DNA of 32,144 bases from a bacterium (GTDB taxonomy: Bacteria > Desulfobacterota > Deferrisomatia > Deferrisomatales > BM512): assembly GCA_009724975.1 (NCBI GenBank), contig SRXB01000002.1, positions 1 to 32,144 on the forward strand, given 5' to 3'. How positions within the stretch are numbered: position 1 is the first letter of the stretch; every line of letters starts with the position of its first letter. This document shows, in pieces, positions 31 to 19,812 of the stretch. The position numbers and the translations under genes were made by a program. Under the pieces are notes generated by a model. It saw only the letters and a list, made by a program, of their open reading frames with translations, was not told the DNA's origin and did not search any database.

Positions 31-2238
31 TTATGTGCAGTGGTTGCATTCCGGGCAGATGTACGTCCAATTCCCTAATGAGTCTTTGCAGGGTGTGGCG
101 AATACGTCCTGGCCAAAACTCCGATCGACCCAGTCGAACGGGGACAAATTCGCTACCTCATCGGACGCTTTCAAAACAATGACCGGGTAGCTTTTGTGAC
201 AGTGCCCGCAGATCCTGTTCCCCCACTTCGACAGGCAACTGGGACATTCACATTCAAAGTGCCCCGTTTTCAAATTGACAGGGGTTTGGGGAGCGTTGAT
301 GCCCGTACTGCAAACCGGACATTTCAGAAGTGCTTCGAAAACGCGTACGCTTTCATCGATTTTTGTGGCAAAGCTTTCTAGTGCGTCCTTGGCCATCTGA
401 GCTTCTGAAATCTGCTTCGTTAAATCTGCCTTTTGCCTGTTCAGATGTTCAGTCTTACTTCGTGCTGTCACCGCTTCACGAAGCTTACCGGTGACATCAT
501 CCCGTTCACCTTCCAGCCTCTGCAATAAGTTATCTGCTGTCTCGACAGACTTGCTAAGGTTGAACCGCCCCATTTCTTGCTCCGTTGGGGGTCGAAGCAG
601 CGTGACGAATCCGTGCCCATTCCCGGCAAGCCACTTTGTTTCAGAAAAATGGGCAAATTCTTTCTGTGGCTCCTTAATCTGTAGCGGGAAAGAGGCGTAC
701 AGAGGCCTGAACAAGGACCACCGTATCGCCCTGGCCACGCGCTCAACGCTGCCGAGATCCCATGGCGATACTGGAAGATAACCGAGCGGCGCGATTTGGC
801 TACTTTTCAAGTCATGCTTAAGAGAGTGGATCCGCTCACTGACCGCGGTTGTCATTTTGTTGGAAGAAAAGGCTTCCGGCGATGACGGGTAGAGAAGCAG
901 CGTGCTGTCAAGGCCAGCTGATGGGCTCTCAAGTTCACCAAACAGATCGCCCAACACCTTCTCTTCCATTTGGACGAGCGAAGATCCAAGGGGCACGATG
1001 CGAAGCACTTGTTTACACCCTTGCTGCACGAGGAAGTTATCCTCCTCGTCCCACGACAGGAAACAAGAACCGCTAGGACCGGTCAATTCCAGAGAACAGC
1101 CCCGCCTGATTGCAATATCACAAGCTTTAGGCTCAAACCCCAACTGGCTGAACGCTCTTGCGGTCAGCAAAAAACAAAATTTCACTATATTCCGGAACAG
1201 TTCCTGGTACTGTCGATAAATTTCCGAAGGCGTTTGCTGCCTGTTAACCCCCAGCTTGACATACGCCTGCCAAAGCGACGCCACATGCCTGTAGTGCTCA
1301 TCGTTCGACAGGATATTCGTCATTTTGATTGACGTGCCAACGCTCGAACGACGCGGGATGGCCCGATAGAGTTCCGTGTCTTTCAGCCCAGCAACCCGTC
1401 TCTTATATGTCTCAAGTTTCTTGATCGTGTTCCTAACCTGCACAAGCCCTTCGTTGGCGTTGACCGATTTCCCCCATAGAGAATAGATCCTTCTTGCACG
1501 CCCCCAAGTGGACCCCTTGGAGACAGAAAAGGTACTATCACTAGCTTCAACGAACATTTTTTCAAGCCGGCGAAGCTCATTGATGCGGGACAGAAGATAC
1601 TCCAGGATCAGGTCAGCAAGCCTAACGCATACCCGGTTCTCGTAGATGTCCAATTGGTCATATCGAACTTGCGAAAGGATCCGCTTGGGGACGACCGACC
1701 GCAGGGTCGGCCTTTCCCAGTCCTCAGTGTGCTCCGCGAGGTAAGCCGCTGCATTGTTGGGGATTCGGCGGCTCTGTGACACGTTCACGCGCTCGATTTC
1801 GACGCGCAGGTGTGCCCTCGGTCGGCGACAGACCTCCTCGAGATGGCAGAGCTCCCTGCCGATCTCGATATCCAGAGGTCGCATCGCGACTCGCTCCGCA
1901 AGCCCTGGTACCAGTGGCGAGATTTCAAGCCAGTCGAACCAGCCGGCGCCTTGATCGACAAGTTCGGACAGTTTACATCCGATGGCATTGATACTTCCCG
2001 CCTCGATCTGTTCCGGGTACTGGCCTGTCGCATACGTTCCGGCCCCTGCCAAGCCGTCCAGCCCGGTGAGCCGCCAATCCCTGGAGAGATCGGAGACGAG
2101 AAGATCCCCATCGGCAACCCGCACGGAATTCAGAAAGACCGGTCTGTCTCCCGGGCGCAGTTGCCAACGGCCGTAGAGAACAGTGCCCTTGGGAGCCTGG
2201 TGATCGGTCCTGGTTATGCGGTCTCGGAAAAGTGACAT
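31..2238 (-). CDS. McrC-position protein: McrC/DUF2357-like N-terminal half, coiled-coil segments, C-terminal double zinc ribbon; no recognisable PD-(D/E)xK motif
   Basis: 735-aa ORF. Its ATG at 2238 lies 3 nt after the stop (2242-2244) of the upstream McrB-like gene. LDIYENRVCVRLADLI resembles the D-x-x-(E/A)-N-R segment I remember from McrC/DUF2357 N-terminal domains. There are E/K/R/L-rich helical stretches. The last 96 aa (nt 34-321) carry CPVC, CPSC, CGHC and CPEC. I found no DAKY-like (D/E)xK block by eye. Confidence 0.55.
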   Translation of the reverse strand: MSLFRDRITRTDHQAPKGTVLYGRWQLRPGDRPVFLNSVRVADGDLLVSDLSRDWRLTGLDGLAGAGTYATGQYPEQIEAGSINAIGCKLSELVDQGAGWFDWLEISPLVPGLAERVAMRPLDIEIGRELCHLEEVCRRPRAHLRVEIERVNVSQSRRIPNNAAAYLAEHTEDWERPTLRSVVPKRILSQVRYDQLDIYENRVCVRLADLILEYLLSRINELRRLEKMFVEASDSTFSVSKGSTWGRARRIYSLWGKSVNANEGLVQVRNTIKKLETYKRRVAGLKDTELYRAIPRRSSVGTSIKMTNILSNDEHYRHVASLWQAYVKLGVNRQQTPSEIYRQYQELFRNIVKFCFLLTARAFSQLGFEPKACDIAIRRGCSLELTGPSGSCFLSWDEEDNFLVQQGCKQVLRIVPLGSSLVQMEEKVLGDLFGELESPSAGLDSTLLLYPSSPEAFSSNKMTTAVSERIHSLKHDLKSSQIAPLGYLPVSPWDLGSVERVARAIRWSLFRPLYASFPLQIKEPQKEFAHFSETKWLAGNGHGFVTLLRPPTEQEMGRFNLSKSVETADNLLQRLEGERDDVTGKLREAVTARSKTEHLNRQKADLTKQISEAQMAKDALESFATKIDESVRVFEALLKCPVCSTGINAPQTPVNLKTGHFECECPSCLSKWGNRICGHCHKSYPVIVLKASDEVANLSPFDWVDRSFGQDVFATPCKDSLGNWTYICPECNHCT

Positions 2239-2241
2239 CGA

Positions 2242-4677
2242 TTACTCATCGTCACCGGAACCGAGGCGCCTAAGCTCGTCCGCGATGATGGCCAGGGAGT
2301 GGGTCGGCTTGCCCTTTTTATCCAGTTCTTTCCACGATTCCTGCACCAATGTCTGCAATTCGACAAGGTGCTCCATCCGGGTGTCATGCCGGTTGCGTAT
2401 CTTCCGCAGGAGCTTCGTAGCGAGGATGTGGTCTGTTGCCTCGCCCACGCTCCCTCCTGCTGCCACCACGACGGGGACGAAATCCATCATCTGTCGCTCG
2501 AGACGATTGCCCCAGCCAACCCTAAACTTCCTGCCGAGAAACTCGGCAAACTTTTCATCGAGGAACTTGTACGCGTGCGTCCCGTGCTTTCCGTTTTTCT
2601 CACGGGCCTGATCGAAGGCCCCCTTCAACGATTCGAAAGCGACCGGATTCCGGTGGTGTGGTCGTTGCGGAGCAAACTCCTCCCGGTTCCTTGGCAGTTC
2701 CATCACGTGGCCGCGGTCATATGTCTTGTCAGCAAAGTCCTTAGTCGTCTCGTCGTGATTGGCAGTGCCGACAAACCACACATTCCTCGGGATCAGCAGT
2801 GTTCTGCCATTTGTCATCAGTTTCGGTGCCGGCTCGACTGGTGCGGTCATCAGGTCAAGTTTCTGCAAATGAGGCTCCTGCTCGAGTGCCGAAAGGAGAT
2901 CAGCGAAGTATTGCTCGGGGTGTGACAGGTTCATTTCATCCAGGACGACAATGTACGGACGGCCATCATAACAGGGAGACTGTGCTTCGTAGAGACCTTG
3001 CAAAAACTCGCTTTCGTAAAACCGGCGCTCGAAGGCGTTGAAGTGACCTACCAGGTCCTGCCGATCGCGCCAACCGGCCTGAACCTCAATCAGCTTGAAA
3101 CCGGCCCCTACTGCCCGAGAGAACGCAATGGGCAGGCTGGTCTTGCCCGTCCCGCTGATCCCTTGGAGCAGGTGCAGCCGGCTCATGGCCAAGCCACCGA
3201 GAAAACAGCGAAGGTCACGAAGGGAATAGTATAGGGGATTCGAAGCATCGGGATCGCTGGCAATTCGATGCTGAAGATCCGTCGTGAATTCTGACAAATC
3301 GATCGCATCCTCTTGCAGATTGACGGAAGAGCGCAGCGCCTTGTCCTCGTCCATTTGCATCAAGGCCGGGAACGGGCTGACTCCATCCGAGCGGCGGATG
3401 CGATCTTCGACATCGGCTCTCAACTCCTCCAATGCGGCTTGGAGTAAATTGCGACTGGTTTCAAGCGCTTTTTTCTGGTCGCGCAGCGTTTCCACCTCGG
3501 TGACTGCAATCTCGCACAGTCCCAATTTCCTCTCGAGCTCCAGCTTCTCCTGAGTCAACCGATACTGCTCCCCTTCCCAGGCCTCCCTTTCTCGCTCAAG
3601 CAACGCAAGGCGCTCAACGGCAGCTAGATTCGGTCGTGCCGCCAATTGTTTTTCCAGTTTTTGGCAGCACTTTACACTCTCGTTCAATTCGGCCAGCACC
3701 TGCTCCGGAGACTTGTTCCCGAAGCGGCGGTCCGACTCCTCCCGCTCGCGAAGGATCGCGTCAAGACGGTCCCGGTCGGCCGAGGCGCTCGATAGCCGAG
3801 CGTTGAGCGCCTTGATTTCAAAGTTCAGTGCTTCTTCCCTGGCCGCCGCTCTCTGTTCCGTGCGCTGCTCCAGATTCTTCCGTTGTTCTTCGATATCTTG
3901 GCGCTCAAATTCGAGCTTCCTTTTTGCTCTCTCGATGTCAACTAGCTGAAGGTGAAGTTTTTGCTCGTTTTTCTTCAATTCTTCATATTCACTCTCGAAA
4001 CGGCTTTTCATCTCGGCCTCATTCCGGCGCAAAAGCTCCTCATGCTCTTCCATCCGGTGGGCCAAATCTCGTTCCAAGGCCAAGCGTTCTTCCGCGACAA
4101 CCTTTCGGCAGTCGCCTATTTCCTGGCGCACAAGGCGCGCCTCTTCCTCCAACAGACGAAGGGATTCGCGGCGCTCCGTTATAAAACCAGCCTCGGCATT
4201 GAGCTCGCGTTTTTTCAATGCCTCTTCCTGGTCAAGAATCTCCCTTTGCTGCGCATCCAGCGCCGTTCGTTCCTCTTTCAACTCTTTTTCCTGCCTGTCG
4301 AGCTCTCGCGACCTCTCGCGCTGCGACTTTTCCTGATCGGAAAGTTTTACGCGCTCTTTATCCAGTTCCTCCTTGAATTCATTCGCACGCTTCTCTCTTT
4401 TTCTGCACAATTCCAAGGCCTCCTGCGCCTTTCTTAGAAGCGCAGGCAAATTGGTCATCTCAGGGGTGATCGTCATAGTGGAAACGGCATCGATATCCAC
4501 ATCCGCAGCCTCGGCGATGGCTGACTCGGAGACTTCATTGACGGCTAACAACTCCTGCGATGACGGTGTCTTTGATTCAACCTTTGGAGCCGAAGGTGTG
4601 GCGCCGGAGGAGTTCCCGTTAGTGCCCACCTGCCCAACTCTGTCCCTGTTCTTGTTTTTGTTCTTGTTCTTTGACAT
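2242..4677 (-). CDS. McrB-family AAA+ GTPase with a long N-terminal coiled coil (CoCoNuT CnuB-like)
   Basis: The ORF track starts at a GTG (4698). The ATG at 4677 is preceded by GGGAGGAAG and is preferred. Motifs: Walker A GISGTGKT, Walker B region IVVLDEMNLSHPEQYFADLLSALE, and WFVGTANHDETT (the McrB NTAD-type equivalent). About 350 aa of heptad-like E/K/R/L/Q sequence (aa ~85-430) precede the ATPase. The extreme N-terminus is KNKNKNKN low complexity. Confidence 0.8.
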   Translation of the reverse strand: MSKNKNKNKNRDRVGQVGTNGNSSGATPSAPKVESKTPSSQELLAVNEVSESAIAEAADVDIDAVSTMTITPEMTNLPALLRKAQEALELCRKREKRANEFKEELDKERVKLSDQEKSQRERSRELDRQEKELKEERTALDAQQREILDQEEALKKRELNAEAGFITERRESLRLLEEEARLVRQEIGDCRKVVAEERLALERDLAHRMEEHEELLRRNEAEMKSRFESEYEELKKNEQKLHLQLVDIERAKRKLEFERQDIEEQRKNLEQRTEQRAAAREEALNFEIKALNARLSSASADRDRLDAILREREESDRRFGNKSPEQVLAELNESVKCCQKLEKQLAARPNLAAVERLALLEREREAWEGEQYRLTQEKLELERKLGLCEIAVTEVETLRDQKKALETSRNLLQAALEELRADVEDRIRRSDGVSPFPALMQMDEDKALRSSVNLQEDAIDLSEFTTDLQHRIASDPDASNPLYYSLRDLRCFLGGLAMSRLHLLQGISGTGKTSLPIAFSRAVGAGFKLIEVQAGWRDRQDLVGHFNAFERRFYESEFLQGLYEAQSPCYDGRPYIVVLDEMNLSHPEQYFADLLSALEQEPHLQKLDLMTAPVEPAPKLMTNGRTLLIPRNVWFVGTANHDETTKDFADKTYDRGHVMELPRNREEFAPQRPHHRNPVAFESLKGAFDQAREKNGKHGTHAYKFLDEKFAEFLGRKFRVGWGNRLERQMMDFVPVVVAAGGSVGEATDHILATKLLRKIRNRHDTRMEHLVELQTLVQESWKELDKKGKPTHSLAIIADELRRLGSGDDE
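4648..4672 (-). repeat. Imperfect AAGAAC hexamer tandem repeat encoding KNKNKNKN at the 5' end of the McrB-like gene
   Basis: The minus strand reads AAAGAACAAGAACAAAAACAAGAAC. Confidence 0.7.
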
Positions 4678-4699
4678 AACTTCTTCCTCCCGCTCCACG

Positions 4700-6268
4700 T
4701 CATTGAGTCAGTGGCAACTCGTAGATGTCCCTGATGATTTGATAAACGCTATCGACACCAACCTGAATCTTGGCCCGGCTTGTCGTCAGTTGACCGCTTT
4801 GCCCGAAGTGCGCTGCATCGTTGACAACATCAGTGATAGAGGCTAATCGCTCCAGCAAGTCTGGGCACCGTTTAGCTGCAGACCTTAAGGGATGGCTATC
4901 AACCCTTGCCGCCGAAAGCATGCTGACGACTATGGCTGCACGTAGCTTCCAAACCTTTCCCGATGAGGAGACAGCCTTGATGTCACTGGGTTTTGCTACG
5001 GCCAGTGAGGCCGGTAGCGGAGTGACGAACCCCATGCTCGACGCTGAAGAGTTGTAGACCTTTTTGACATACTCGGCATGCTGCCAGTTCTTCTCGTCCT
5101 TATAAAGTGCACGCCAGACCTGCTCGTCCGGGAACATCGCCAACATGTGGCCAAAAACCCCCTCCAAGACGCGGCGTGCGGCATTGAGCGTGTCTCTGAA
5201 TTTGTGTTTAGGACAGCTCTCGTCAAGTAATTCCACTTCCTGGCGGCAGCACTCCATCTCAACTACCACCTCAAAGAAAGGGAGCTGTTCTAAGGTTGCG
5301 CCGAGCCTTGAAATGGCTTTGGCGCGGGCATCAACTTCAATTTCCCGGTGCCACTTGCGTTGATCTTCCAACCTATCGCGATTTTTCTCGCCGACGAGCC
5401 TGTCCAGCGTCGTCCTTAACCCTGGGTAGTCAGGGAGTTGCTCTTCTATTCTTTTTTTCAGCCGGGCACTTACCCCCAAGCCGAAGGGGTCACAGGCATA
5501 CCAGTCCCACACATCCATTTCGGCCTGGGGCAGATAGATGTACGTATTGAGAAAGCAGGGGGTGGGCTTGTCTTCCACCATCGAAACACGGTCAAGGCAA
5601 CTGCTGCTGATAGGTGTGGAATCTTCTTCACCATCGTTCTCGCCGCGCATGTTTTCATCGGCATCCGAATAGCGCGCGGCCCGATTGTGCCGCCGGGTTA
5701 CCGTCACGATTTCAGCGGCCTCCGGCGTCTGCGGCGGGCCGAGTGCCTTCGGTAAATGCATGTAGGTCGGCTGCAAATAGGGTTTCCCCTTTGTACCAAG
5801 CACCAGAATCGGGAAGCCCTTTTCTCCGTACTGTAAATTGACACTGTCGAGCTTACTCTGCTCGACAAAGCGCGGCCAGAGTTGCCCGCTCCAGGGGTCC
5901 TGAAAGACATAGCCGACAACGGTTTTGTGATCTTCGATGGTCTCATGAGCGAGTAGATCGAGCCCCTTTTGGGTCGGTATGCCGTGGCTGTCGACAAGAG
6001 CCTTCATCTGCAGCTCGAGCATTATCTTTGCTACCAAATCCGGGTGCAGGTGGAGCCGACCGCCGACCTTTTCCCGATTCACAATACCGATGCGGCACAT
6101 CCCCAGCACCGCCTTTTGAAAGACGTTCAGCACTTTATCCCGAGGTTCAGGTGCTACGACCTGATAGCGCCAGGCGGGCCAGAGAAGGTGCTGGCGCTTA
6201 TCGAATGGAACGTGCGCTCGCGGTCGGAAGTTGTGAACGGGAGAATTACGCTGAAAGTCGAATGCCAT
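4700..6268 (-). CDS. Hypothetical protein with a possible N-terminal winged helix and a C-terminal HEPN-like helical domain with a degenerate motif
   Basis: The ATG at 6268 is preceded by GGGGGGGAGC (the G7 tract at 6272-6278) and lies 19 nt after the helicase stop. VLNVFQKAVLGMCRIGIVNREKVGGRLHLHPDLVAKIMLELQ looks winged-helix-like. The C-terminal helical region ends in LLERLASITDVVNDAAHFG, which resembles a HEPN Rx4-6H helix but has Val where Arg is expected. Confidence 0.45.
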   Translation of the reverse strand: MAFDFQRNSPVHNFRPRAHVPFDKRQHLLWPAWRYQVVAPEPRDKVLNVFQKAVLGMCRIGIVNREKVGGRLHLHPDLVAKIMLELQMKALVDSHGIPTQKGLDLLAHETIEDHKTVVGYVFQDPWSGQLWPRFVEQSKLDSVNLQYGEKGFPILVLGTKGKPYLQPTYMHLPKALGPPQTPEAAEIVTVTRRHNRAARYSDADENMRGENDGEEDSTPISSSCLDRVSMVEDKPTPCFLNTYIYLPQAEMDVWDWYACDPFGLGVSARLKKRIEEQLPDYPGLRTTLDRLVGEKNRDRLEDQRKWHREIEVDARAKAISRLGATLEQLPFFEVVVEMECCRQEVELLDESCPKHKFRDTLNAARRVLEGVFGHMLAMFPDEQVWRALYKDEKNWQHAEYVKKVYNSSASSMGFVTPLPASLAVAKPSDIKAVSSSGKVWKLRAAIVVSMLSAARVDSHPLRSAAKRCPDLLERLASITDVVNDAAHFGQSGQLTTSRAKIQVGVDSVYQIIRDIYELPLTQ

Positions 6269-9200
6269 GCTCCCCCCCGCACAAATCATGGAAAGCGATC
6301 AATCCCGGAATGGCCTCAGACGCATCATTCACCGTGAGCATCCCTTCGTCACCGACAACAATCAGTAGCCTCTGTTGTCTACTCATCGCAACGCACAAAC
6401 GATTTTCGAGCATGAGATGTCCGAATTTCCTGCGAAGGGTTTTGCCCCCCCCCGAAGGAAACTCATTGCTTCTTGTCATCGAAAGGATAACAACGTCGAA
6501 TTCCTTGCCCTGGAACGCATCCACCGTTCCCACCCGCAATCTGTCCTTCAATTTCCCGTTGCTGTCCAGGAGTTCGCGCCATGCCGGAGCGACCGCAAAC
6601 GAACCGTTGTCAAGTTGTTCAGTCAACCCGTTCATGGAGAGAGCTTTGTTGATTTCATCGACCTGCGCTGAGTAAAAGCTGATGATCCCGACGGAAAGAT
6701 CCGATCGCAGCTCCAGCATGCGCTTGGTTTCCTTGGCGATCCACCTGGCCTCGACTGGACGGAACTTGCTCTGCTTCCCCTTTTCGGAGCCGGCGCTGTA
6801 AGGGATGTTCACCCAAGCCGCAACGGCATCACGGTAACGCTCCAACCCATGCACAAAGTCAGAGGCAGGGCGTCCGGAGCGGAACGACTCCCCGTGTGGC
6901 TTGTAGAACGTGTCGCTGACAAAGTCGCCAAGGATTGGGTGCATGCGGTACTGGACGTCAAGCGTGACAGTCCTCTTGATCCCATCGACTCTTTCCCTCT
7001 CGCGCATATCTTCAAAAAGGCGCCAGAACATACTCTTGCGCAGAGAGTCACGCGTCGCTTCCAGTACCGACTCCTCAAGCTGGAGTTCGACATCCGGTTC
7101 AAGAATGTGTGGGAGTTGCCTGTGGTCACCGACAAGAATGATCCTTCGCTCTGCACACGACAACGGGATCAGGAGATCGAGGGGGTTGGCTCGGGCCGCC
7201 TCGTCGACAACCACGTTTTCAAAAACGATGGAATTGGGCTCGGCTTCCCAGAGAGAGGCGCTCTCCCCCCCTTTAATGATCGACATGCGATAGCCAACAG
7301 CCTGCTGGCAGGTGGCGGCGAGAACGGCCGTGTACTCTCTGATCGAGTCGCGCATAGACTCGCTGTCGTTTTCCAAATCGTCGAGGTATTCGGAGAGGAC
7401 GACCTCTTCCCCACCGGCGGTCTGCCGCGCTCGCTGGTACAACGCCTCAACGGCTTCCACGAGAAGTGCTTGGACATCGTCATTGACTAAGCGGACCCCG
7501 AGGGGGCGTTGGTCCCCCTGCAATCGATCGAGAAGCACGCCCTTGAGTTGTTCCAGTTCCTGCAGAAATGGGGGAGGGGCATCGGGATCGGGCCATTCCG
7601 CAGCCCTCTCCAGCAGCGCGCGCTCCTGCTCATCGAGCTGGCCGTTGCTATCGATTCGGCTGAGAACCCGATAGGCACTTTGAGGACCGTCATCCCCAAA
7701 CGTTGTTGGCTCGACCCGCAGGCCGCGTACGGCCTTCATTGCGAAGTCGGTGTCTTCGGCTGCAAGCCCCCCTTTTAATAGATGCCCTTTCTGAAGCTGC
7801 AGTTGAAGGGTAAGAAAACGGTCCTTCAGCTCCGCCTGGAAATGATCACCTCCCTCACTCCTGACGGAAGCCAGGGCTTGGATCGCATCCTCCATCCCGG
7901 TCGGCGATCCAACGTATGCAGCCGCAATGTCCCTCACCCGTTTGAGGGCCTCTGTCACCGGCCGTGTCGGGAATTGCGCCAAATCAGCGCGAACCGCGTC
8001 CACACGTTCTTTTCGCCAACGTTCGAAACCATCGTCCTCTGTATCTTGCCCGCGTCTCCGGCCAACCTTGATTGCCGGCAATCCGTAGACCACGGTTCTC
8101 TCTGCGGCATTTTCAACGGCATCATGCTGGTAGCTCGTCAATAGTGTCTGCCCGGAAATCCCCCTTGATTCTTCGGCTATCTCGGCAAGCCGAGACTGCA
8201 GGGCAGCAATGACCATGGTCTTGCCAGTACCTGGGGGGCCTTGAATCAAGGCTATATCAGGTGTGTTGATAGCTACTTTCAGCGCTTCTATCTGGCGTGC
8301 CGTCGGTTCGGCACCAAAGGCTGCCTTGACGGCTCCGGATAGCGGTTGCCAAGTTTTCCCTCGGCGTTCATGAATAGGTGCGCGTTCGATGATAAGGCCG
8401 AGTTCTGGCATCCTGCACTCTGCCGTAACGATGCTTCTCAGCGCGAGTTCCCGTCTCTTCAGACGCTTTCTGTCCCCACTGAGGCTCATGAAAATGGCAC
8501 CGTCCCGGGGGGGGATGGTGTCATCGTCACCCCTAGAGGAGGACAGATCGATGGTCTTGGCATTCAGGTTGTAAGCGACAGGTTTCCCAACGAAAGCGAC
8601 TCGGCTTTTCTTCACCTCTTCGCCGGCACCATCCCTACCCCCGGAAGAGTGAAGCTCCGAGGGAGGGGCTTCGGCGACCTCAAGACTGACATCCTCATTG
8701 TCGAAAATTGCACTCAACACAGTATCAACATTGGGGGCGTCTTTGAGGCTAAAACGCCAAATGCCTTCCCGCAACAGCTCCGGCTTCCCCTTGTAGGATA
8801 GCCAGCCAAGGGCGCGAGCACGCTTTAAAATGCTCTCCCTTTCGATATGGTTGTAATCACCCCACAGTTTGAGATAGCTGCCGGCGCCTGCAACCATTTG
8901 GTCCAGCATGCTCCTGGCGGTACCACGAAACTGTCCGGCCATGGTGAGGTCGCAAAAACGGATATTCCCTTGAACGAGGATCACCGGTCTGCGTTCTTCC
9001 AACCGGTCGGAGCGTTTGCTCTGGACGATGCGCGTGACGAGAAGCCGATTCTCCTTGGTGCGGCTAACATCGATGGAGATACCGACGCCGTGAAGACGAA
9101 ATGCGGTTTTTTTCTCCCCCTGAAGGTCTGGGCTCCCGGTGAGCAAGGCCCTGATCAGCCCTCCGGGCTCGAACGGCACGAGCAAGACCCGCTCCGTGAG

Positions 9201-9617
9201 CCAATCGACAACGCCGGCGACATTGATAATCTTATCTTCCCGCCTGCGCACGTCTTCTACGACTTTATCGTCGATTCCCAAGTCGACGGTTTCTGGCCAC
9301 TCGTATCGCGCGGGGAACTCATGGATTTGTAGCGTTATCCGTCGTGTTTCCACCTTGGTGGGCAGCGCTGCAGCTACCCAGCAGATTCGCGGCAATCCTT
9401 TTGATCTCAACCGTCCGAGGGTCTCGTTGTCTCCCGGATTTTCCCCCGTTATGGAAATCGCATGATCACCGACTTTCATAAGCAGCTCATCAGTTGTTTC
9501 GTTGAAGAACAGGAAGACTTCCGTCTTGGGGCGAACCTCTAGCCCAAACGCGTCCCCTCGGGCTGGCCGCACGCCAACCGCAGTCATCCCTCCATGTGGG
9601 ACCTGATGAACGTTCAT
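6246..9617 (-). CDS. Superfamily-1 UPF1/DNA2-like (COG1112-type) helicase with ~450-aa N-terminal non-helicase extension
   Basis: Motifs seen: Walker A LIQGPPGTGKT, motif II VVVDEAARANP, ILVGDHRQLP, LDVQYRMHPILGDFVSDTFY, VGTVDAFQGKEFDVVILS and LCVAMSRQQRLLIVVGD. The ATG at 9617 overlaps the kinase stop as ATGA. The longer ORF reaching 9776 would overlap the kinase gene and is rejected. Confidence 0.85.
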   Translation of the reverse strand: MNVHQVPHGGMTAVGVRPARGDAFGLEVRPKTEVFLFFNETTDELLMKVGDHAISITGENPGDNETLGRLRSKGLPRICWVAAALPTKVETRRITLQIHEFPARYEWPETVDLGIDDKVVEDVRRREDKIINVAGVVDWLTERVLLVPFEPGGLIRALLTGSPDLQGEKKTAFRLHGVGISIDVSRTKENRLLVTRIVQSKRSDRLEERRPVILVQGNIRFCDLTMAGQFRGTARSMLDQMVAGAGSYLKLWGDYNHIERESILKRARALGWLSYKGKPELLREGIWRFSLKDAPNVDTVLSAIFDNEDVSLEVAEAPPSELHSSGGRDGAGEEVKKSRVAFVGKPVAYNLNAKTIDLSSSRGDDDTIPPRDGAIFMSLSGDRKRLKRRELALRSIVTAECRMPELGLIIERAPIHERRGKTWQPLSGAVKAAFGAEPTARQIEALKVAINTPDIALIQGPPGTGKTMVIAALQSRLAEIAEESRGISGQTLLTSYQHDAVENAAERTVVYGLPAIKVGRRRGQDTEDDGFERWRKERVDAVRADLAQFPTRPVTEALKRVRDIAAAYVGSPTGMEDAIQALASVRSEGGDHFQAELKDRFLTLQLQLQKGHLLKGGLAAEDTDFAMKAVRGLRVEPTTFGDDGPQSAYRVLSRIDSNGQLDEQERALLERAAEWPDPDAPPPFLQELEQLKGVLLDRLQGDQRPLGVRLVNDDVQALLVEAVEALYQRARQTAGGEEVVLSEYLDDLENDSESMRDSIREYTAVLAATCQQAVGYRMSIIKGGESASLWEAEPNSIVFENVVVDEAARANPLDLLIPLSCAERRIILVGDHRQLPHILEPDVELQLEESVLEATRDSLRKSMFWRLFEDMRERERVDGIKRTVTLDVQYRMHPILGDFVSDTFYKPHGESFRSGRPASDFVHGLERYRDAVAAWVNIPYSAGSEKGKQSKFRPVEARWIAKETKRMLELRSDLSVGIISFYSAQVDEINKALSMNGLTEQLDNGSFAVAPAWRELLDSNGKLKDRLRVGTVDAFQGKEFDVVILSMTRSNEFPSGGGKTLRRKFGHLMLENRLCVAMSRQQRLLIVVGDEGMLTVNDASEAIPGLIAFHDLCGGEHGIRLSA
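6445..6453 (-). repeat. G9 homopolymer (coding strand) inside the helicase CDS
   Basis: The plus strand has nine consecutive C. It encodes the SGGG of NEFPSGGGKTL, upstream of helicase motif VI. Confidence 0.9.
8517..8524 (-). repeat. C8 homopolymer (coding strand) inside the helicase CDS
   Basis: The plus strand has eight consecutive G. It falls in the codons for TIPPRD in the N-terminal extension. Confidence 0.9.
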
Positions 9618-11023
9618 GACGGACCCCCAGGATGAAACTCGAACCGTACGACCCGATGCACTTCTGCCTTGTCGCCAAGATGTAAATAAAGTGAAGATTT
9701 CCTCGGTTCGAGCTTCGTCGTGACGGGTCGTAAGCCTAGATCCATCTGTTTGGTCCTGGATGCCGATATGAGGCAATAGCTCGCGCCATCTAGAGATTTT
9801 AGGGACAGAACGTCCCCTGACAGACTCAATTCGACCAGCTCCCTACAATGAGACCCAGGAGTTGACCCGAAGGCCAAACGGCTATCGATGCGAAGGGGTA
9901 CCTGCTCATCCATGATCGCGATCTCGGCGATAACAGGTTTCTTATCCGGACGCTCCAATACTTCCTTGCCCTCACCAAGAGAAGGGTCCCAGAGGTAAAA
10001 GATAATGCGGACAAATGTTGGCCGTTGGTGGTCGCACCATGGGCAGTGCGCTTCGTTGTAGTAGTAGCTACCGCCGCAGCTTGGGCAATTCAAGGTGCGG
10101 TCGGCGGATGCGTGCAGTCGCTCAGCCCATTCGGCAATGCCCGGCCGCTTGGTTGGCTCGTTCAACCCCTCTTCGAAAGATCTGCGACACAGTTTTCTGA
10201 GTTCCGGCGACAACACCATTTCTCGCGGGATTCCGCTGTGGCAGCGGTTCAAGTTGTCACCCTCGTGCTCGATCCACGGGAGCTCCCCCAACAGGGCTTT
10301 TTCCTCCAGACAAGGCTCACCTTCCGTCACGTAATCTCCAATCAGTGGGTGAGCCAAGGTGAGTGTTTGAAACGCCAAGACTGAAAATGCGTGTGCATCT
10401 GTCAGTGAGTTGACGCCCGAGAGCCCCTTCAGAAGTTCGGGGGCCCCATAACTCGGGGTGTAAATCGTCTGCGCGACCGGAGAAGAGGAGTAAGTAAGGT
10501 TGTCGGCATCGATAAAGGCGACTTCCTGTGCATCGACAGACTCTGACACGAAGATGTTCGCCGGGGACGGATCACCGTAGACCAAGCCCTTGCTGTGGAG
10601 CTTGGCAAGTATGTCGGCCGATTTTGCCAGAAGTCGAAGACGCCTTTTGAGTCCACCCCCGGAAAAATACCATCTCACGAGGGACGGCGTACCCTTCGGG
10701 ACAGCGGCCAGCGTCTTCAATGGCACCATCCCCGACATCAACTCCATGACGTAGCCTAAATACGGGCTACGCAGAACTGCCAAAGGTTTGGCAATGGCAA
10801 CATCCTGAAGGGGGAGGCGTTTGACAAACGTAATCTGATTTTTCAATCGCTCCCGCTGTGCCGAGGTCCTGTTTATGAGAATTTTGACGGCAAGTTTGCC
10901 CCCCTCGACTTCAAAAACAGTCCCCTGACCGCCACTCTTTGGGGATGCGGTAGCGCTAAGGGGATAGCGGTGGCCATGTAAATCCACAACCTCTTTGGGC
11001 GCATTACTCATGGCTCGCTGCAC
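9614..11023 (-). CDS. Ser/Thr protein kinase (TerY-P triad kinase) with internal zinc ribbon and beta-rich C-terminal domain
   Basis: Motifs seen: Gly-rich loop SGGQGTVFEV, LAVKIL lysine, catalytic loop HSKGLVYGDPSPANIFV, FIDADN (DFG position), SYGAPE, and CPSCGG...CPWCD. The start is either the GTG at 11023 or the ATG at 11011. Both overlap the PP2C stop (11004-11006). Confidence 0.8.
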   Translation of the reverse strand: MQRAMSNAPKEVVDLHGHRYPLSATASPKSGGQGTVFEVEGGKLAVKILINRTSAQRERLKNQITFVKRLPLQDVAIAKPLAVLRSPYLGYVMELMSGMVPLKTLAAVPKGTPSLVRWYFSGGGLKRRLRLLAKSADILAKLHSKGLVYGDPSPANIFVSESVDAQEVAFIDADNLTYSSSPVAQTIYTPSYGAPELLKGLSGVNSLTDAHAFSVLAFQTLTLAHPLIGDYVTEGEPCLEEKALLGELPWIEHEGDNLNRCHSGIPREMVLSPELRKLCRRSFEEGLNEPTKRPGIAEWAERLHASADRTLNCPSCGGSYYYNEAHCPWCDHQRPTFVRIIFYLWDPSLGEGKEVLERPDKKPVIAEIAIMDEQVPLRIDSRLAFGSTPGSHCRELVELSLSGDVLSLKSLDGASYCLISASRTKQMDLGLRPVTTKLEPRKSSLYLHLGDKAEVHRVVRFEFHPGGPS

Positions 11024-11753
11024 TCTCTTTCATCCACAGAATGACCAAGGTTTTGTCGTCAATATGGTGAGGAGTTGGCCACTCCCTCAGTTCTCTCCTG
11101 AGCGAATGCCAGCGCTTTAAAGGAGGCATCGCGCCGAACTCCTCGAGCAGCCAAATTACAAAGTCATCGACCCTATCTGGTATCAAGTCATCAGAGATAC
11201 CGTCTGTTGCCAAAAGAACGATTGCTTCTCCCGTGACGCGAAAGTCCTGCAGGGTCCAATTGCTGACCTGGAGATTTTGCCCCAAAGCTCTTGTATTATT
11301 TGAAAAGTTGTCCCCGCGCTGGCCGTGAATCCATTCCGTGTCCTCGCCACCCCGCTTTATGACCGCCATTCCATCTCCCAACCCGCCAATCAGCAAATTG
11401 CCATCGGGGCGTTTCAGAGCGAACAAACAGGTAGCTTTGCTGGCGCCAGGCGGAAATGGCAATACAAGTCTCTGCCAGGTCGGCTCAATCTGCGTGATCA
11501 GTTCAGTTGGCGTGCCGCCCGAAAGTTTGCTCCACTTTTTGACGGATTGAACAACAGCCTCGCACGCACACTTCGCACCGTGTCTTGCGTGAGGGCATGA
11601 ACCTACTCCGTCACTGACGACGATCAGGTCGCCGAAAGCCCCCTTGGCTCTCATCCAGGCGTCTGCATTGGGCATGTGCCTGGCCCTGTGATAAGGCCCC
11701 GCCTCGGAGGCCCCGAATGCAAGGGTTTCCCCTCTGCTAGAAAACGTCTTCAT
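11004..11753 (-). CDS. PP2C-family Ser/Thr phosphatase (TerY-P triad)
   Basis: 249-aa ORF with LIVVSDGVGSCPH and VLLATDGISDDL metal-binding Asp motifs typical of PP2C. The start overlaps the vWA gene end by 17 nt. Confidence 0.8.
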   Translation of the reverse strand: MKTFSSRGETLAFGASEAGPYHRARHMPNADAWMRAKGAFGDLIVVSDGVGSCPHARHGAKCACEAVVQSVKKWSKLSGGTPTELITQIEPTWQRLVLPFPPGASKATCLFALKRPDGNLLIGGLGDGMAVIKRGGEDTEWIHGQRGDNFSNNTRALGQNLQVSNWTLQDFRVTGEAIVLLATDGISDDLIPDRVDDFVIWLLEEFGAMPPLKRWHSLRRELREWPTPHHIDDKTLVILWMKESAASHE

Positions 11754-12399
11754 CGAAATCGATCGGGTCGCTCGGAATGAAGCTGTCGGGGTTTACGCTG
11801 CGTGAGCGCTCCGTCACGCTCATCGTGACCCACTTGAAAAACTTTTTGATCTGTCGAACATCTTGTGCAGAGAAGACCTTGCCGTTTGGATCCGCCAAAA
11901 AAGCTGAAAGCATTGTCATGTCGGCATCATCGCCGATTCCCAAAGCAAAGCGGCTGGCCTTGGAACCACGCGGAGAGGACAAAAGGTCTTGCAACGGCTG
12001 TTGCCAGTCATCGGTAGGTTGACCGTCAGATACCAGGATCAAAGTCGGCGAGTAGGACCGGCTGGGTATCTGTTGCCGATCCTCGATCAACTGAAGAGCG
12101 GTATTAAGGGCCGCACCTAGAGGTGTAGCCCCGGCTGCAGTCATTCTTTGCCATGAGGTCTGTCCTGCAGGTGTCAGGGCTTGATGGAGTTGCCCCCCAT
12201 TTTTGCCGAAAGTGATGGTGGCCACATGGATTTCTGCCCTGTGGTCATCCTCACTGGCAAATGTCCGCAGCATTTCCTCGATGGAGTCATTGAGCACGTC
12301 AATTTTGCCATTTGTGCTCATACTGCCACTGACGTCAGCAAGAAGGATCACAGGGAGTGGGCGAGCGGTGCCGACGACGAATTCCTTTAGTTTGCTCAT
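11737..12399 (-). CDS. TerY-like von Willebrand factor A (vWA) domain protein (TerY-P triad)
   Basis: MIDAS motif LLADVSGSMS, followed by ATPLGAAL and LILVSDGQPTDD. ATG codons occur at 12405 and 12399; GAGGAA spacing favours 12399. The gene starts 5-11 nt after the RtcR-like stop (12410-12412). Confidence 0.8.
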   Translation of the reverse strand: MSKLKEFVVGTARPLPVILLADVSGSMSTNGKIDVLNDSIEEMLRTFASEDDHRAEIHVATITFGKNGGQLHQALTPAGQTSWQRMTAAGATPLGAALNTALQLIEDRQQIPSRSYSPTLILVSDGQPTDDWQQPLQDLLSSPRGSKASRFALGIGDDADMTMLSAFLADPNGKVFSAQDVRQIKKFFKWVTMSVTERSRSVNPDSFIPSDPIDFDEDVF

Positions 12400-12409
12400 G
12401 TTCATTTCC

Positions 12410-14062
12410 TCAGTTGAGTTGTCTGTCGAGCCAGTTTCTGATTGTTCGCTCAGTCACATCGCAGAGACTTTCTACTGGGACTCCGCGCGACTTCGCGATC
12501 CTCCGGATTTCTCCCGCCAGATATCGCCTGAACTCACCTTCAATCTGGGCGCAATCGATGGCCCCCGCAGACTGCAGCACAAGGTCAAGCGGCTGCCGAT
12601 CCGCAAAACAGCGCGCGACCCGCGGGGCGATCGCTTCCGTTTGTCTCTGTGTCGACGAGGAAAAATCGAGAGCTGATAACGCCTCGTCGATCGCCTGGTC
12701 GGGAGATAATCGGGTTTCCTCATCGCTGCGGGCAGCCAGGAAATGGTAAGCGACTTGATAAAGGGTTCGGAGATTGCCAGGGAGAGGATGCTGCTGCAAA
12801 AATCGCACAATCTTGTTGCTCTGCGCTTTACCGATCGATCTCGATCTGTGCGGGACACCGGAACGCTGGGCCGCGTTCTCGTAGACCTGCTCCCAGAGCC
12901 AAGGGATATCCTCTGGTATGTCCCGGAGAGCTGGGAAGTGGAGAACGAACGTGCTGATCCGATCAAGGAAGTCGCGATCAAGACGGCTTTCCAAAATGTC
13001 CCAAGGGAGATTGGTGGCTGTCAATAAGCGAAAGTTGCTTTCCACAGGCTGGTTGTCACCAAGGGGGTAGTACCGTTTTTCCTCCAACGCCTTTATCAGG
13101 AGTCTCTGGACCTCCTTTGACACGTCACCGACTTCGTCCAGAAAGAGCGTATCGTTGTTGGCTTTAGAGAGAAGGCCTTCCTTTTTGAATTTAGCGTCCG
13201 TGAAGGAGCCCTTCGCATGGCCGAAGAGTTCTGACCGCATGGTTTCGGGCGTATACTGGCCACAGGCCACGGCGGGCCACTCGGCCCCCTTGCCATTCTT
13301 GAACTGACTATGAAGTCTGATCCAGCTTCCCAAGGTGGTTTTCCCGGTGCCGCGTTCGCCCAGGATAAGGATCGGTACGTTCAATTTGGCATAACGGGCA
13401 GCTTTTTCATAAAGTGCGATGAGAGCCGCAGACCGAAAGAGCCGACGGTCCCATAGTATCTGTTGTTCTGAGGTTTCGACCTGTAATGGTCTGGTGGAAA
13501 CGAATTTTTTGTAAAACGTATCGATACCGATTTCTACGTTCCCAATTACCTGCCCATCTGGTCGCTCGCCTTTTCGATAGGATTTTACAAGTCGGAGCGG
13601 CGGAGCGATGAAACCCGTTTCCGCCATCAGTACCCAAATAGTGTGCATCGACGGGGTTCCGGGGCTCACATGGATAATGAGCTCGCGGTTTAGATACTGC
13701 TGGCGAAGCCGCGGAAGCTGATCTTCTAGAAACTCAAAGATGCTTTTGTGGTCGGTCGGATCGTCGGAATGCCAGCAGAGGGTTCGGGCCTTGATCCCAC
13801 TGTCGCGTTTGCGAATTTCACCTATTGTTTCTTCAGCCGTCTGCTTCTCCTCAGTACGTCCTGAAGAATCCTGACGGTAGAGTAAAATCACGTCCTTGAC
13901 GGTACCGCGCAGAGGCGACCCCTCGGAGAAAAGCAGGTTCAATGTGGGCCCCGGTATGGGGACTCCGTCAACGAGACGATAGCTCCTGGATTCGCGTTGC
14001 CTCTCAAACGGGTCATTGTTGAAGGCGGCCCATGATATGAGGACGGCGTCTTTATTTGTCAC
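12410..14062 (-). CDS. RtcR-like sigma54-dependent transcriptional activator (N-terminal CARF-type domain, AAA+ core, C-terminal HTH)
   Basis: GTG start at 14062 with GGAGG 10 nt upstream. Motifs seen: Walker A ILGERGTGKTTL, sigma54-contact loop ELFGHAKGSFTDA (GAFTGA-like), Walker B LFLDEVGD, and RLLTATN. The N-terminal ~190 aa include LIIHVSPGTPSMHTIWVLMAETGF, which resembles the RtcR N-terminal domain from memory. The C-terminal ESLCDVTERTIRNWL is HTH-like. Confidence 0.75.
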   Translation of the reverse strand: MTNKDAVLISWAAFNNDPFERQRESRSYRLVDGVPIPGPTLNLLFSEGSPLRGTVKDVILLYRQDSSGRTEEKQTAEETIGEIRKRDSGIKARTLCWHSDDPTDHKSIFEFLEDQLPRLRQQYLNRELIIHVSPGTPSMHTIWVLMAETGFIAPPLRLVKSYRKGERPDGQVIGNVEIGIDTFYKKFVSTRPLQVETSEQQILWDRRLFRSAALIALYEKAARYAKLNVPILILGERGTGKTTLGSWIRLHSQFKNGKGAEWPAVACGQYTPETMRSELFGHAKGSFTDAKFKKEGLLSKANNDTLFLDEVGDVSKEVQRLLIKALEEKRYYPLGDNQPVESNFRLLTATNLPWDILESRLDRDFLDRISTFVLHFPALRDIPEDIPWLWEQVYENAAQRSGVPHRSRSIGKAQSNKIVRFLQQHPLPGNLRTLYQVAYHFLAARSDEETRLSPDQAIDEALSALDFSSSTQRQTEAIAPRVARCFADRQPLDLVLQSAGAIDCAQIEGEFRRYLAGEIRRIAKSRGVPVESLCDVTERTIRNWLDRQLN

Positions 14063-14124: not shown

Positions 14125-14490
14125 CTATGCTGCCGCATGACCATGAAAATAATCGTCGCTTTTATTGCTTTTCCGCCAGACTTTCCCATACCGGGGTTTC
14201 AGCCCACGGAAATTGTGATTACGATAGGCAGTGAGGACGGTGCCGGACTGGGAGCAAACCACGTGAATGCCCTCGCACCTTTCAAGATTAATCCCCAGGT
14301 CCCTTTGAAATTTAATTTCCTTGATCCCAACTACGTAAATAATTGCCCCCCGAATTTGGATCGCCCGCCCATAAGTAAGAACGTTGTCAATATCGCTACT
14401 GCGAATGTGTCTGTCACTCATCCTCTCCAAAGCATGCTTAGTCAAAATCGCTTCGACGTCGCCCGACCACTCCGCATTGTGTCCTTGCAT
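14125..14490 (-). CDS. DUF4258-like small protein; first gene behind the candidate sigma54 promoter
   Basis: 121-aa ORF with ATG at 14490 preceded by GGAGGTGAACC. TKHALERMSDRHIRSSDIDNVLTYG resembles the DUF4258 H-A-x-E-R-M signature. GC content is visibly lower than in neighbouring genes. Confidence 0.45.
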   Translation of the reverse strand: MQGHNAEWSGDVEAILTKHALERMSDRHIRSSDIDNVLTYGRAIQIRGAIIYVVGIKEIKFQRDLGINLERCEGIHVVCSQSGTVLTAYRNHNFRGLKPRYGKVWRKSNKSDDYFHGHAAA

Positions 14491-14526
14491 GGTTCACCTC
14501 CGTGGATGGATGTTGACCATTAATTT

Positions 14527-14542
14527 TGCCAACAGCATGCCA
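14527..14542 (-). promoter_or_regulatory. Candidate sigma54 (-24/-12) promoter
   Basis: The minus strand reads TGGCATGCTGTTGGCA. GG and GC are spaced exactly as in the consensus TGGCACG-N4-TTGCW. The element ends ~37 nt upstream of the DUF4258-like ATG and lies in the same operon as a sigma54 activator. Confidence 0.5.
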
Positions 14543-14610
14543 AGAGGATCGAAAAAAATTAATTCATAAATATCGACATGTTAGATATGCATGAAGAGAT
14601 CGGTCACGAT

Positions 14611-14619
14611 ATTATATCA
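14611..14619 (-). promoter_or_regulatory. Possible extended -10 sigma70 element (TGATATAAT)
   Basis: The minus strand reads TTGATATAATATCG in the AT-rich 188-nt intergenic region. There is no convincing -35. Confidence 0.25.
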
Positions 14620-14626
14620 AAGTTTT

Positions 14627-14663
14627 CGGAAAAATAATTCCACTATAATGAATTTTATTTCCG
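14627..14663. promoter_or_regulatory. 14-nt imperfect inverted repeat; candidate activator-binding site (UAS)
   Basis: The minus strand reads CGGAAATAAAATTC-N9-GAATTATTTTTCCG, with 12 of 14 positions complementary. It is centred ~100 nt upstream of the candidate -24 element. Confidence 0.3.
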
Positions 14664-14678
14664 CAATGCGTTGCGTTG

Positions 14679-18804: not shown

Positions 18805-19812
18805 TTAAGCGTGAGCGGGCTTTCTTGCTTTGACTGCACCGATGATCAGATTGTCGACGATTTTCAGCGGGGAGGTATCCCATGGGAACTCCTCACTTCG
18901 ACGGGCCCAGTGCTCTGTTGCGCTCGAAAATTCCTGGCTGGAGATCACCGGGACGAAGAACTTTTCGATGAGCCCCCGCATGAGATCCCATTGGCCGTGC
19001 AGGTCATTAGTGATGTTTTTGCTCCCGAGAAGGTGCGCCAACGTGTATTCCCTGTCGATCGGTGGCACGAGATTGGGGATGAGGTGGTGCATGACCTTAG
19101 AATTGCCGACGAGCCTCGTGCGGCTGGCCATCACGTCGATCCCCTCGAAAATCTCGCGTACGGCCCCCCAACGCGTCTCGTCCATCTGCGTGAGATCGAA
19201 CTGTTGGGCTTCGTGGATCCTGGCCACCAACGCCTCCACGCTGCGCAGGAAACGCTCGAAGGGACGCATCTTCGAGCCCTTTCCTCCCATGCGGTGCATG
19301 CCCCAAGAGGCCAGGGTGGCATAGACATACTCGAGGTGGGAGGTTGAGCACGGGGTTTGGCGAGTTTCCAGCGCTCTTCGGTGAAAGTATAGGCTGGGCC
19401 CCCCGAACACTTCCGCCTCGTAGTAGGCGACGTGATAAGGCCCCAAGTTTTCGAGCAGATCGCGAACCTTTTCGGGAAGCCCCTGGCCGGGACGCGCTCG
19501 CCGGCGAGGCGCCTCGCCCCGCCGCACGGACTCCTCGCGAGGGGCAGCACCCCCATCAGCCAGGAGGGAAATCCTCATCGGACGGGTGCTAGTGTCACGC
19601 CGCAACCGCCGGTCGGTCCTGACGGCCGTGTAGATGTTGGCCAGGAGAGCGTGATCGAGGGAGGTGTAGTTGCCTTTCTCGACATTCTTTAGCTGCGAGT
19701 CCGTCCCATAAAACTCGGGATGACTTCTTTTGATGATCTCGTGGATTTCCTGGGGTGTGATGGGGGCTCTTGCATTCGCGATTATGGTTCTTAATAGCTC
19801 AGCAAAGTTCAT
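18805..19812 (-). CDS. Hypothetical protein with an N-terminal winged-helix (HARE-HTH/Mrr_N-like) module
   Basis: The ATG at 19812 is preceded by GGGGGAG. The ATG-ATG at 19848 lacks an SD. MNFAELLRTIIANARAPITPQEIHEIIKRSHPEFYG looks like a small wHTH. The C-terminal ~200 aa are unrecognised. Confidence 0.45.
   Translation of the reverse strand: MNFAELLRTIIANARAPITPQEIHEIIKRSHPEFYGTDSQLKNVEKGNYTSLDHALLANIYTAVRTDRRLRRDTSTRPMRISLLADGGAAPREESVRRGEAPRRRARPGQGLPEKVRDLLENLGPYHVAYYEAEVFGGPSLYFHRRALETRQTPCSTSHLEYVYATLASWGMHRMGGKGSKMRPFERFLRSVEALVARIHEAQQFDLTQMDETRWGAVREIFEGIDVMASRTRLVGNSKVMHHLIPNLVPPIDREYTLAHLLGSKNITNDLHGQWDLMRGLIEKFFVPVISSQEFSSATEHWARRSEEFPWDTSPLKIVDNLIIGAVKARKPAHA

Follow-up and report, generated by a model that had tools for sequence, protein, structure and literature searches.

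RtcR homologues and BrnT-like genes were reported to head CoCoNuT operons of types II and III-A (Bell, Makarova, Wolf and Koonin, eLife 2024, PMC11090510). CoCoNuTs are widespread predicted RNA-targeting defence systems, and the sole experimental report on them in the literature searched is a 2026 preprint, according to which a seven-gene Type II CoCoNuT protects Pseudomonas aeruginosa from two RNA phages (PP7 and LeviOr01) and from the DNA phage MPK7. The first 32,144 nucleotides of contig SRXB01000002.1 (GenBank assembly GCA_009724975.1; here the window), from a bacterium of the Desulfobacterota, were found to carry an operon of this kind, with the gene for an RtcR-like regulator (12410..14062, minus strand) inside it. 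An earlier interpretation of the same DNA, made from its letters alone (hereafter the sequence-only reading), had arrived independently at the hypothesis that RNA damage or a small nucleotide signal could induce the system through this regulator, which is essentially the idea also proposed by Bell et al. (PMC11090510). The link between such regulators and CoCoNuTs has thus been in print since 2024, and the locus is a good example of it. What is added here, drawn from comparison of related loci and modest in extent, is a predicted sigma-54 promoter and enhancer mapped across the family, neither of which Bell et al. (PMC11090510) name, and a clade-specific gene order that would place the regulator under its own control.

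RtcR of Escherichia coli and Salmonella shares with the window regulator the order CARF - AAA+ - helix-turn-helix (HTH), homologous N-terminal domains and a -24/-12 promoter at the target. However, the rtcR gene is divergent from its target, whereas the window regulator is co-directional with its predicted target and lies inside it, the adjacent rtcB and rtcA genes that mark a true RtcR are missing near it, and its sigma-54 contact loop is GSFTDA instead of GAFTGA. The RtcR homologues found with CoCoNuTs of types II and III-A share with it the RtcR_PspF1 family and the same partners (a BrnT-like gene, the TerY-P triad and CnuH-E-B-C), but in those loci the regulator mostly comes first, while in the clade of the window the promoter and the BrnT-like gene do. 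The Csm6/Csx1 effectors and the Csa3 CARF-HTH regulators of type III CRISPR-Cas have the same sensor fold and would share with the window regulator the principle that a ligand at the CARF dimer switches the attached output domain; its output is a sigma-54 AAA+ motor, where theirs is a HEPN RNase or a simple HTH, and the window contains no CRISPR-Cas or cyclase genes.

The regulator is a distant paralogue of RtcR

The open reading frames (ORFs) of the window, of which all long ones are on the minus strand, were scanned against Pfam (24 translations), NCBIfam and PADLOC profiles. The regulator (550 aa, GTG start) was assigned to the RtcR_PspF1 family by a match to PADLOC profile PDLC01994 (RtcR_PspF1--CARF_AAA_HTH) with E 2.7e-149, in which aa 5-546 align with positions 3-466 of 468. 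The top-ranked NCBIfam family was RtcR (E 2e-54, aa 60-474), but the score against the RtcR equivalog NF038308 was 185.4 bits, far below the curated cut-off of 650, and no match to the Pfam RtcR N-terminal model PF06956 was obtained at E <= 0.01, though this model is precomputed for some homologues of the regulator. Full-length BLASTP comparison with E. coli RtcR gave 32% identity over aa 101-386, and judged by sequence the protein is a distant paralogue of true RtcR. In the public database the ORF is annotated as a gene for only 510 aa that begins with TTG at codon 41, which drops the first CARF strand (window 13943-14062). As more than 100 homologues can be aligned with the regulator from residue ~3 onwards, and a GGAGG stands 10 nt 5' of the GTG, 12410..14062 with the GTG at 14062 are the better coordinates.

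A full-length AlphaFold2 (AF2) model, with a pLDDT score of 81, has four parts: the CARF part (aa 1-175), a disordered linker (aa 180-200), the AAA+ domain (12725..13450, minus strand; aa 205-446) and a helical C-terminus. The AAA+ domain matched Pfam PF00158 (Sigma54_activat, E 1e-37, aa 210-374) and, in a PDB sequence search, Flagellar regulatory protein A, NifA, NtrC, FleQ, ZraR and PspF (E ~1e-25 to 1e-29). The features of a bacterial enhancer-binding protein (EBP) could be read directly from the translation, namely Walker A GERGTGKT (13337-13360, aa 235-242), the loop GSFTDA (13193-13210, aa 285-290) and Walker B LFLDEVGD (13124-13147, aa 306-313), all three as the sequence-only reading had given them, together with the putative arginine fingers R363 and R368 within LDRDFLDR. 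The C-terminus closes in an HTH-like arrangement of helices 504-526, 530-532 and 538-546 (12425..12553, minus strand; aa 504-546, ...VESLCDVTERTIRNWL); it matched no HTH model in Pfam, and the PADLOC CARF_AAA_HTH profile aligned up to aa 546. Pfam, PADLOC, AF2 and Foldseek therefore bear out the architecture that had been proposed, a CARF-type sensor followed by a sigma-54 AAA+ core and a C-terminal HTH.

The N-terminal domain has a CARF fold

In order to model the sensor domain (13538..14062, minus strand), aa 1-200 were submitted to AF2 with a 21-sequence alignment. The model (pLDDT 86.8, predicted template modelling score 0.82) is a beta-alpha Rossmann-like sandwich, and nearly all of its Foldseek matches in the PDB, including all at E <= 0.001, are CARF proteins. 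The top match was Csm6 with bound cyclic hexaadenylate, cA6 (6tug, E 7e-7, template modelling score over the query 0.62), followed by Cam1, the ring nuclease Sso2081, Csa3, Csx1-Crn2 and Cad1, and 6sce, a type III CRISPR DNA nuclease activated by cyclic oligoadenylate (cOA), was also found. A weak Csm6-CARF match was given by Pfam for aa 100-147. Alignment of the N-terminal family alignment with aa 1-190 of E. coli RtcR by hhalign had a probability of 91% (E 9e-7, ~125 columns), in agreement with the suggestion that the N-terminal ~190 aa resemble the RtcR sensor. The PDB sequence search returned solved relatives for the AAA+ part alone and no solved RtcR-type CARF domain. Three groups of residues that follow CARF strands are invariant in the family: W11/D17-P18, D101-P-T-x-H105 and S133-P-G-T136. 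According to the model, the N-terminus folds as a CARF domain, in a Rossmann-like manner and with conserved loops behind strands one and four; model and Foldseek search thus agree on the point on which the proposal of a CARF sensor depended.

A predicted sigma-54 promoter and paired palindromes precede the operon

The intergenic region 14491-14678, which the sequence-only reading had put forward as the regulated promoter region, holds both the best -24/-12 match of the window and a tandem pair of palindromes, and both elements are conserved in sequence and spacing over ~50 distant relatives; in all its checkable parts the interpretation is supported. The predicted sigma-54 promoter CTTGGCATGCTGTTGGCAAAA (14524..14544, minus strand; -24 GG at 14540-14541, -12 GC at 14528-14529) is located ~38 nt 5' of the ATG of the BrnT-like gene and its GGAGG, in AT-rich surroundings. 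It is the sole GG-N10-GC site scoring at least 6 in the 32 kb. A position weight matrix (PWM) was built from other loci, the window being left out of model building, and refined iteratively, with the 99th percentile of 1008 control windows as the threshold; the same site gave the highest score of ~64,000 window positions, 15.6 bits, where the controls reached 13.5 at most. The second-best match, GGTGGCACGAGATTGGGGATG (19061-19081, plus strand; 14.1 bits), is also above the control maximum; it is antisense within a minus-strand gene, has no upstream palindrome pair and is probably due to chance.

The enhancer-like palindromes, of consensus CGGAA-N6-TTCCG, are CGGAAATAAAATTCAT (distal, 14648..14663, minus strand), which starts 122 nt upstream of the -24 GG, and TGGAATTATTTTTCCG (proximal, 14627..14642, minus strand), which starts 101 nt upstream of it and 21 bp from the distal one. 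They form the only tandem pair in the window (14627-14663) and lie at the offsets typical of the family. No match to the consensus for integration host factor was found between the palindromes and the promoter. A perfect extended -10 element, TGATATAAT (14611-14619, minus strand), is present downstream of the proximal palindrome and upstream of the sigma-54 promoter. Its position is not conserved in the related locus L081, and it might allow a basal level of sigma-70-driven expression for the BrnT-like gene and the regulator.

For comparison, 80 loci with relatives of the regulator (43-72% identity; numbered with the prefix L) were taken from a scan of species-representative genomes. They span Myxococcota, Alpha-, Beta- and Gammaproteobacteria, Planctomycetota, Latescibacterota, Nitrospirota, Verrucomicrobiota, Rhodothermales and other groups, among them Desulfuromonadota/Geobacterales. 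In tblastn searches with the window proteins, ~55 of the 80, from many phyla, had on one strand the genes for the regulator, the BrnT-like protein, vWA, PP2C, the kinase, CnuH, CnuE and CnuB, with the PP2C gene lacking in a few, and in ~50 a BrnT-like homologue stood between the regulator and the vWA gene. The spacer that separates the regulator from the BrnT-like gene in these loci (150-310 nt) is otherwise unalignable, yet it contains a conserved -24/-12 element. This element, with the consensus TTGGCACG-N4-TCGCA, or TTGGA at -12 in one group, scored above the control threshold in 51/53 loci, at 46-137 nt before the next gene (BrnT-like or vWA), and the E. coli rtcBA promoter (TGGCACGACGGTTGCA) is of the same form. 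A strict GG-N10-GC rule was discarded in favour of the PWM, as it missed ~12 loci that by eye have TGGCAC-N5-TTGGA, with G in place of C at -12. This variant is conserved in the group formed by L037, L041, L045, L047, L051, L057, L058, L060, L065 and L066, the C being near-invariant elsewhere.

The family palindromes are likewise two 16-bp CGGAA-N6-TTCCG sites, 21-22 bp apart, which start ~100-150 nt before the GG. Tandem pairs number 50 in the 1.38 Mb of the 80 loci, and 44/50 are at the 3' end of the regulator gene, upstream of the promoter. Motif conservation thus predicts, at the target, a -24/-12 promoter together with upstream activator sites, as is characteristic of a bacterial EBP. Where the gene order is the usual one, a palindrome CGGAAG-N4-CTTCCG falls within the last ~30 nt of the regulator gene (L003, L004, L021, L035, L052 and many others), so that the last codons encode a conserved C-terminal RKxSSE tail; this peptide may owe its conservation to the DNA site. 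Additional pairs away from the regulator gene were seen in L073 (at 1363, 3537 and 8323) and in L027 (at 6895, ~170 nt from a minus-strand BrnT-like gene), and in some genomes this regulator may govern several promoters. Family members that are not beside a CoCoNuT (L009, L046, L050, L054, L056, L062, L064, L071 and others) come from Rhodothermales, Bacteroidota, Verrucomicrobiota, Phycisphaerae and other groups, and their neighbours are heterogeneous (LysM-SLT, kinase-WD40, PP2C-FtsW-PBP, alpha-2-macroglobulin, DUF2779, DUF1848, an AAA_15 ATPase); those that do carry the motifs include L009, L048 and L074.

The sigma-54 contact loop of the regulator could also be placed in the family. The forms found were GAFTGA in 35 of the 80 loci, GAFTDA in 19 and GSFTGA in 15, while F287, T288 and A290 are invariant. 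The departure from GAFTGA remarked on earlier is real, and the window regulator unites both substitutions, S and D; within this alignment GSFTDA is a clade variant in a family with a GAFTGA majority. The idea that the GAFTDA loop goes together with the -12 promoter variant was considered and dropped, since GAFTGA loci carry the same -12 variant.

The regulator gene follows the promoter that it probably controls

Most loci have the order regulator, promoter, BrnT-like, vWA, and the window has promoter, BrnT-like, regulator, vWA. The BrnT-like gene ends 62 nt before the regulator gene, only 4 nt separate the latter from the vWA gene, and the later genes overlap or abut. A search of the 62-nt gap revealed no terminator-like site, and a sigma-70 scan of the same gap no convincing promoter. 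The description of the regulator as sitting inside the operon that it probably controls is the natural reading of this arrangement. L001 (Geomonas diazotrophica Red69, 72% identity) and the metagenomic locus L081 (72%) likewise have the BrnT-like gene first, with the same promoter and palindrome pair, and the clade with the promoter and the BrnT-like gene first and the regulator after them has regulators 72-74% identical to that of the window. The regulators of this clade are without the RKxSSE tail, which fits an enhancer that has moved with the promoter. By comparison with more distant relatives, the BrnT-first order looks like a derived state. To judge from the gene layout, transcription of the regulator gene almost certainly proceeds from the promoter that the regulator would activate, and since its gene is downstream of that promoter both here and in the closest relatives, positive autoregulation is implied.

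The operon encodes a Type II CoCoNuT

Nearest downstream of the promoter, a gene (14125..14490, minus strand, as are all genes of the operon) encodes a small DUF4258 protein (BrnT-RelE-like; Pfam PF14076, E 7e-8), a gene called BrnT-like by Bell et al. (PMC11090510). After the regulator come the genes for a TerY-like vWA protein (11737..12405; Pfam and PADLOC), which starts 4 nt after the regulator stop, for a PP2C phosphatase (11004..11753; Pfam) and for a Ser/Thr kinase with a C-terminal zinc ribbon (9614..11023; Pfam and the motifs CPSC and CPWC), which make up the TerY-P triad. They are followed by cnuH (6246..9776 as listed, with a likely start at an ATG near 9617), whose product is a UPF1-like superfamily 1 helicase (Pfam AAA_11/AAA_12; PADLOC MkoA-like, E 3e-85), the protein in which Bell et al. 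(PMC11090510) describe a RelE-like domain. The next gene (4700..6289) encodes a 529-aa CnuE homologue that has no Pfam match and was recognised by tblastn and motif alignment. CnuB (2242..4698) joins a coiled coil, in the N-terminal ~400 aa, where heptad-like E/K/R/L sequence abounds and SMC is weakly matched, to a McrB-like GTPase (Pfam AAA_5, aa 510-661; PADLOC PDC-M26A, E 4e-32) in which the motif N647-H-D is NxD in place of NxxD. CnuC (31..2238, 735 aa) is McrC-like by synteny and motifs and has the C-terminal zinc-ribbon motifs CPVC, CPSC and CPEC at aa 640-731 and no Hsp70 match.

Thus, by domain content and synteny, the genes downstream of the regulator, the TerY-P triad and CnuH-CnuE-CnuB-CnuC, are a Type II CoCoNuT, with the expected CnuB GTPase bearing NxD, CnuC zinc ribbon lacking an Hsp70-like domain, CnuH helicase and TerY-P triad. 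The defence-like gene set that had been noted behind the regulator has in this way been given an identity, and the accompanying remark that RtcB and RtcA are missing holds as well, since Pfam found neither domain in the 24 ORF translations. One feature departs from the type: at the position expected for the HEPN RxxxxH motif of CnuE (aa 488-496), which is "conserved in most cases" (Bell et al., PMC11090510), the window has VNDAAH. Among the relatives, some read RDRAAH at this point, while the arginine is gone from many others too, and the putative RNase CnuE may be inactive at this locus.

In L082 (13058-21644) a regulator identical to that of L081 and the same BrnT-like, vWA and PP2C genes are followed by a truncated kinase gene and then by HARE-HTH-Mrr, PLD-SNF2 helicase and MmeI-type methyltransferase genes instead of CnuH-E-B-C. 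Both L081 and L082 adjoin TraG/TrbC conjugation genes and a gene for a WYL protein, a setting that points to an exchange of effectors on a mobile element.

Upstream of the operon, on the same strand, the segment 14679-26025 holds several further genes, among them those for a 529-aa protein without a Pfam match, a PLD-like protein of 827 aa that carries a CxxC pair near its C-terminus, a protein with a C2H2 zinc finger and an ADP-ribosylglycohydrolase of 541 aa, and may be another defence module; metK is at 26936-28117.

Proposed mechanism and alternatives

The domain architecture, the CARF fold, the family membership, the conserved synteny and the conserved promoter and palindromes together argue that the regulator probably serves as a transcriptional switch dedicated to this defence operon, a Type II CoCoNuT of the RtcR-associated kind, and acts through a sigma-54 promoter. 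Dimers of the regulator would bind, via the C-terminal HTH, the two CGGAA-N6-TTCCG palindromes that lie 21 bp apart and ~100-120 bp upstream of the promoter. A signal in the N-terminal CARF domain would release a brake on the AAA+ domain; by analogy with RtcR this would most likely be an RNA fragment with a 2',3'-cyclic phosphate end and less likely a cyclic oligonucleotide, although the assignment of either, or of another nucleotide, is pure inference. The regulator would then form a ring and, using ATP, open the closed complex of the sigma-54 holoenzyme through its GSFTDA loop, so that transcription would run through the brnT-like, regulator, vWA, PP2C and kinase genes and cnuH-E-B-C. Since in this clade the promoter also precedes the gene of the regulator itself, induction would be expected to amplify itself.

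Several facts weigh against this model. The CARF domain is only ~25% identical to that of RtcR, and its ligand may differ. Approximately 18 family members are not beside a CoCoNuT, and nearly all of these are without the promoter and palindrome motifs at the regulator gene. The -12 element of the window promoter is TGGCA and not TTGCA. The window does not contain rpoN, and that the genome has this gene is assumed from relatives (Geobacterales) and from the promoter itself. The sequencing runs that hold the region are freshwater-sediment DNA metagenomes only, with no RNA runs among them. Activation of E. coli RtcR is reported to require RtcA and RtcB as well, two proteins that bind its CARF domain (PMC9650030), and both are absent from the window ORFs scanned. 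Finally, the loop of the window regulator is the double variant GSFTDA, and VfmH, with GAFTDA, showed no detected sigma-54 interaction in a pull-down (PMC10714721).

The low identity to the RtcR sensor, together with best structural matches that are cA6/cA4-binding CARF domains (Csm6, Cam1, Sso2081, Csa3), raises the alternative that the regulator senses a cOA-type cyclic oligonucleotide in place of damaged RNA and so links the operon to a cyclase encoded elsewhere. We consider this unlikely, as no Cas10, CD-NTase or other cyclase domain occurs in the window ORFs scanned, sequence profiles group the domain with RtcR and not with Csm6, and the putative RNases of the operon itself (the BrnT-like protein, the RTL domain of CnuH, and CnuE) could yield cyclic-phosphate ends.

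It is less probable still that control extends just to the BrnT-like gene and the regulator itself, or to distant targets, with the TerY-P and CoCoNuT genes on promoters of their own. Internal promoters probably exist in long CoCoNuT loci (Bell et al., PMC11090510), and the extra palindrome pairs of L073 and L027 would agree with targets elsewhere; against this, the vWA gene starts just 4 nt after the regulator stop and the next genes overlap or abut, no second sigma-54-like site was found on the coding strand upstream of the vWA gene, and the regulator is linked to the whole gene set across phyla.

That the regulator is no longer linked to sigma-54, GSFTDA having made it a sigma-70-type activator or a mere palindrome-binding repressor, is the least probable alternative: although the loop departs from GAFTGA at two positions, VfmH failed in the pull-down and the possible extended -10 TGATATAAT lies between the palindromes and the -24/-12 element, this element is conserved beside the palindromes in the clade (window, L001, L081), the F, T and final A of the loop are retained along with Walker A, Walker B and the arginine fingers, and Desulfovibrio vulgaris EBPs with GAFTDA or GSFTGA, each singly, were assigned sigma-54 regulons (PMC4641369). 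The loop variant need not speak against the predicted sigma-54 dependence of the regulator.

Returning to the model of a sigma-54-dependent switch responsive to damaged RNA, cyclic-phosphate ends produced by the BrnT-like protein, the RelE-like domain of CnuH or CnuE could close a feedback loop, though CnuE lacks the HEPN arginine at this locus (VNDAAH). A bolder version, which we regard as doubtful, would make the operon a self-priming RNA-damage alarm: low activity of the BrnT/RelE-like RNase, or cleavage during infection, would generate 2',3'-cyclic-phosphate RNA ends, the CARF domain would read them, and the regulator, as second gene, would give an all-or-none CoCoNuT burst, the gene order of the clade being an evolved bistable switch and not a neutral rearrangement.

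The locus and its ~50 relatives supply a 21-bp predicted sigma-54 promoter and two 16-bp palindromes as test pieces, with which the published hypothesis that an RtcR-like CARF domain senses RNA damage and induces the system becomes directly testable. For the role of positive feedback, the clade whose regulator gene lies within the operon itself provides a natural comparison.

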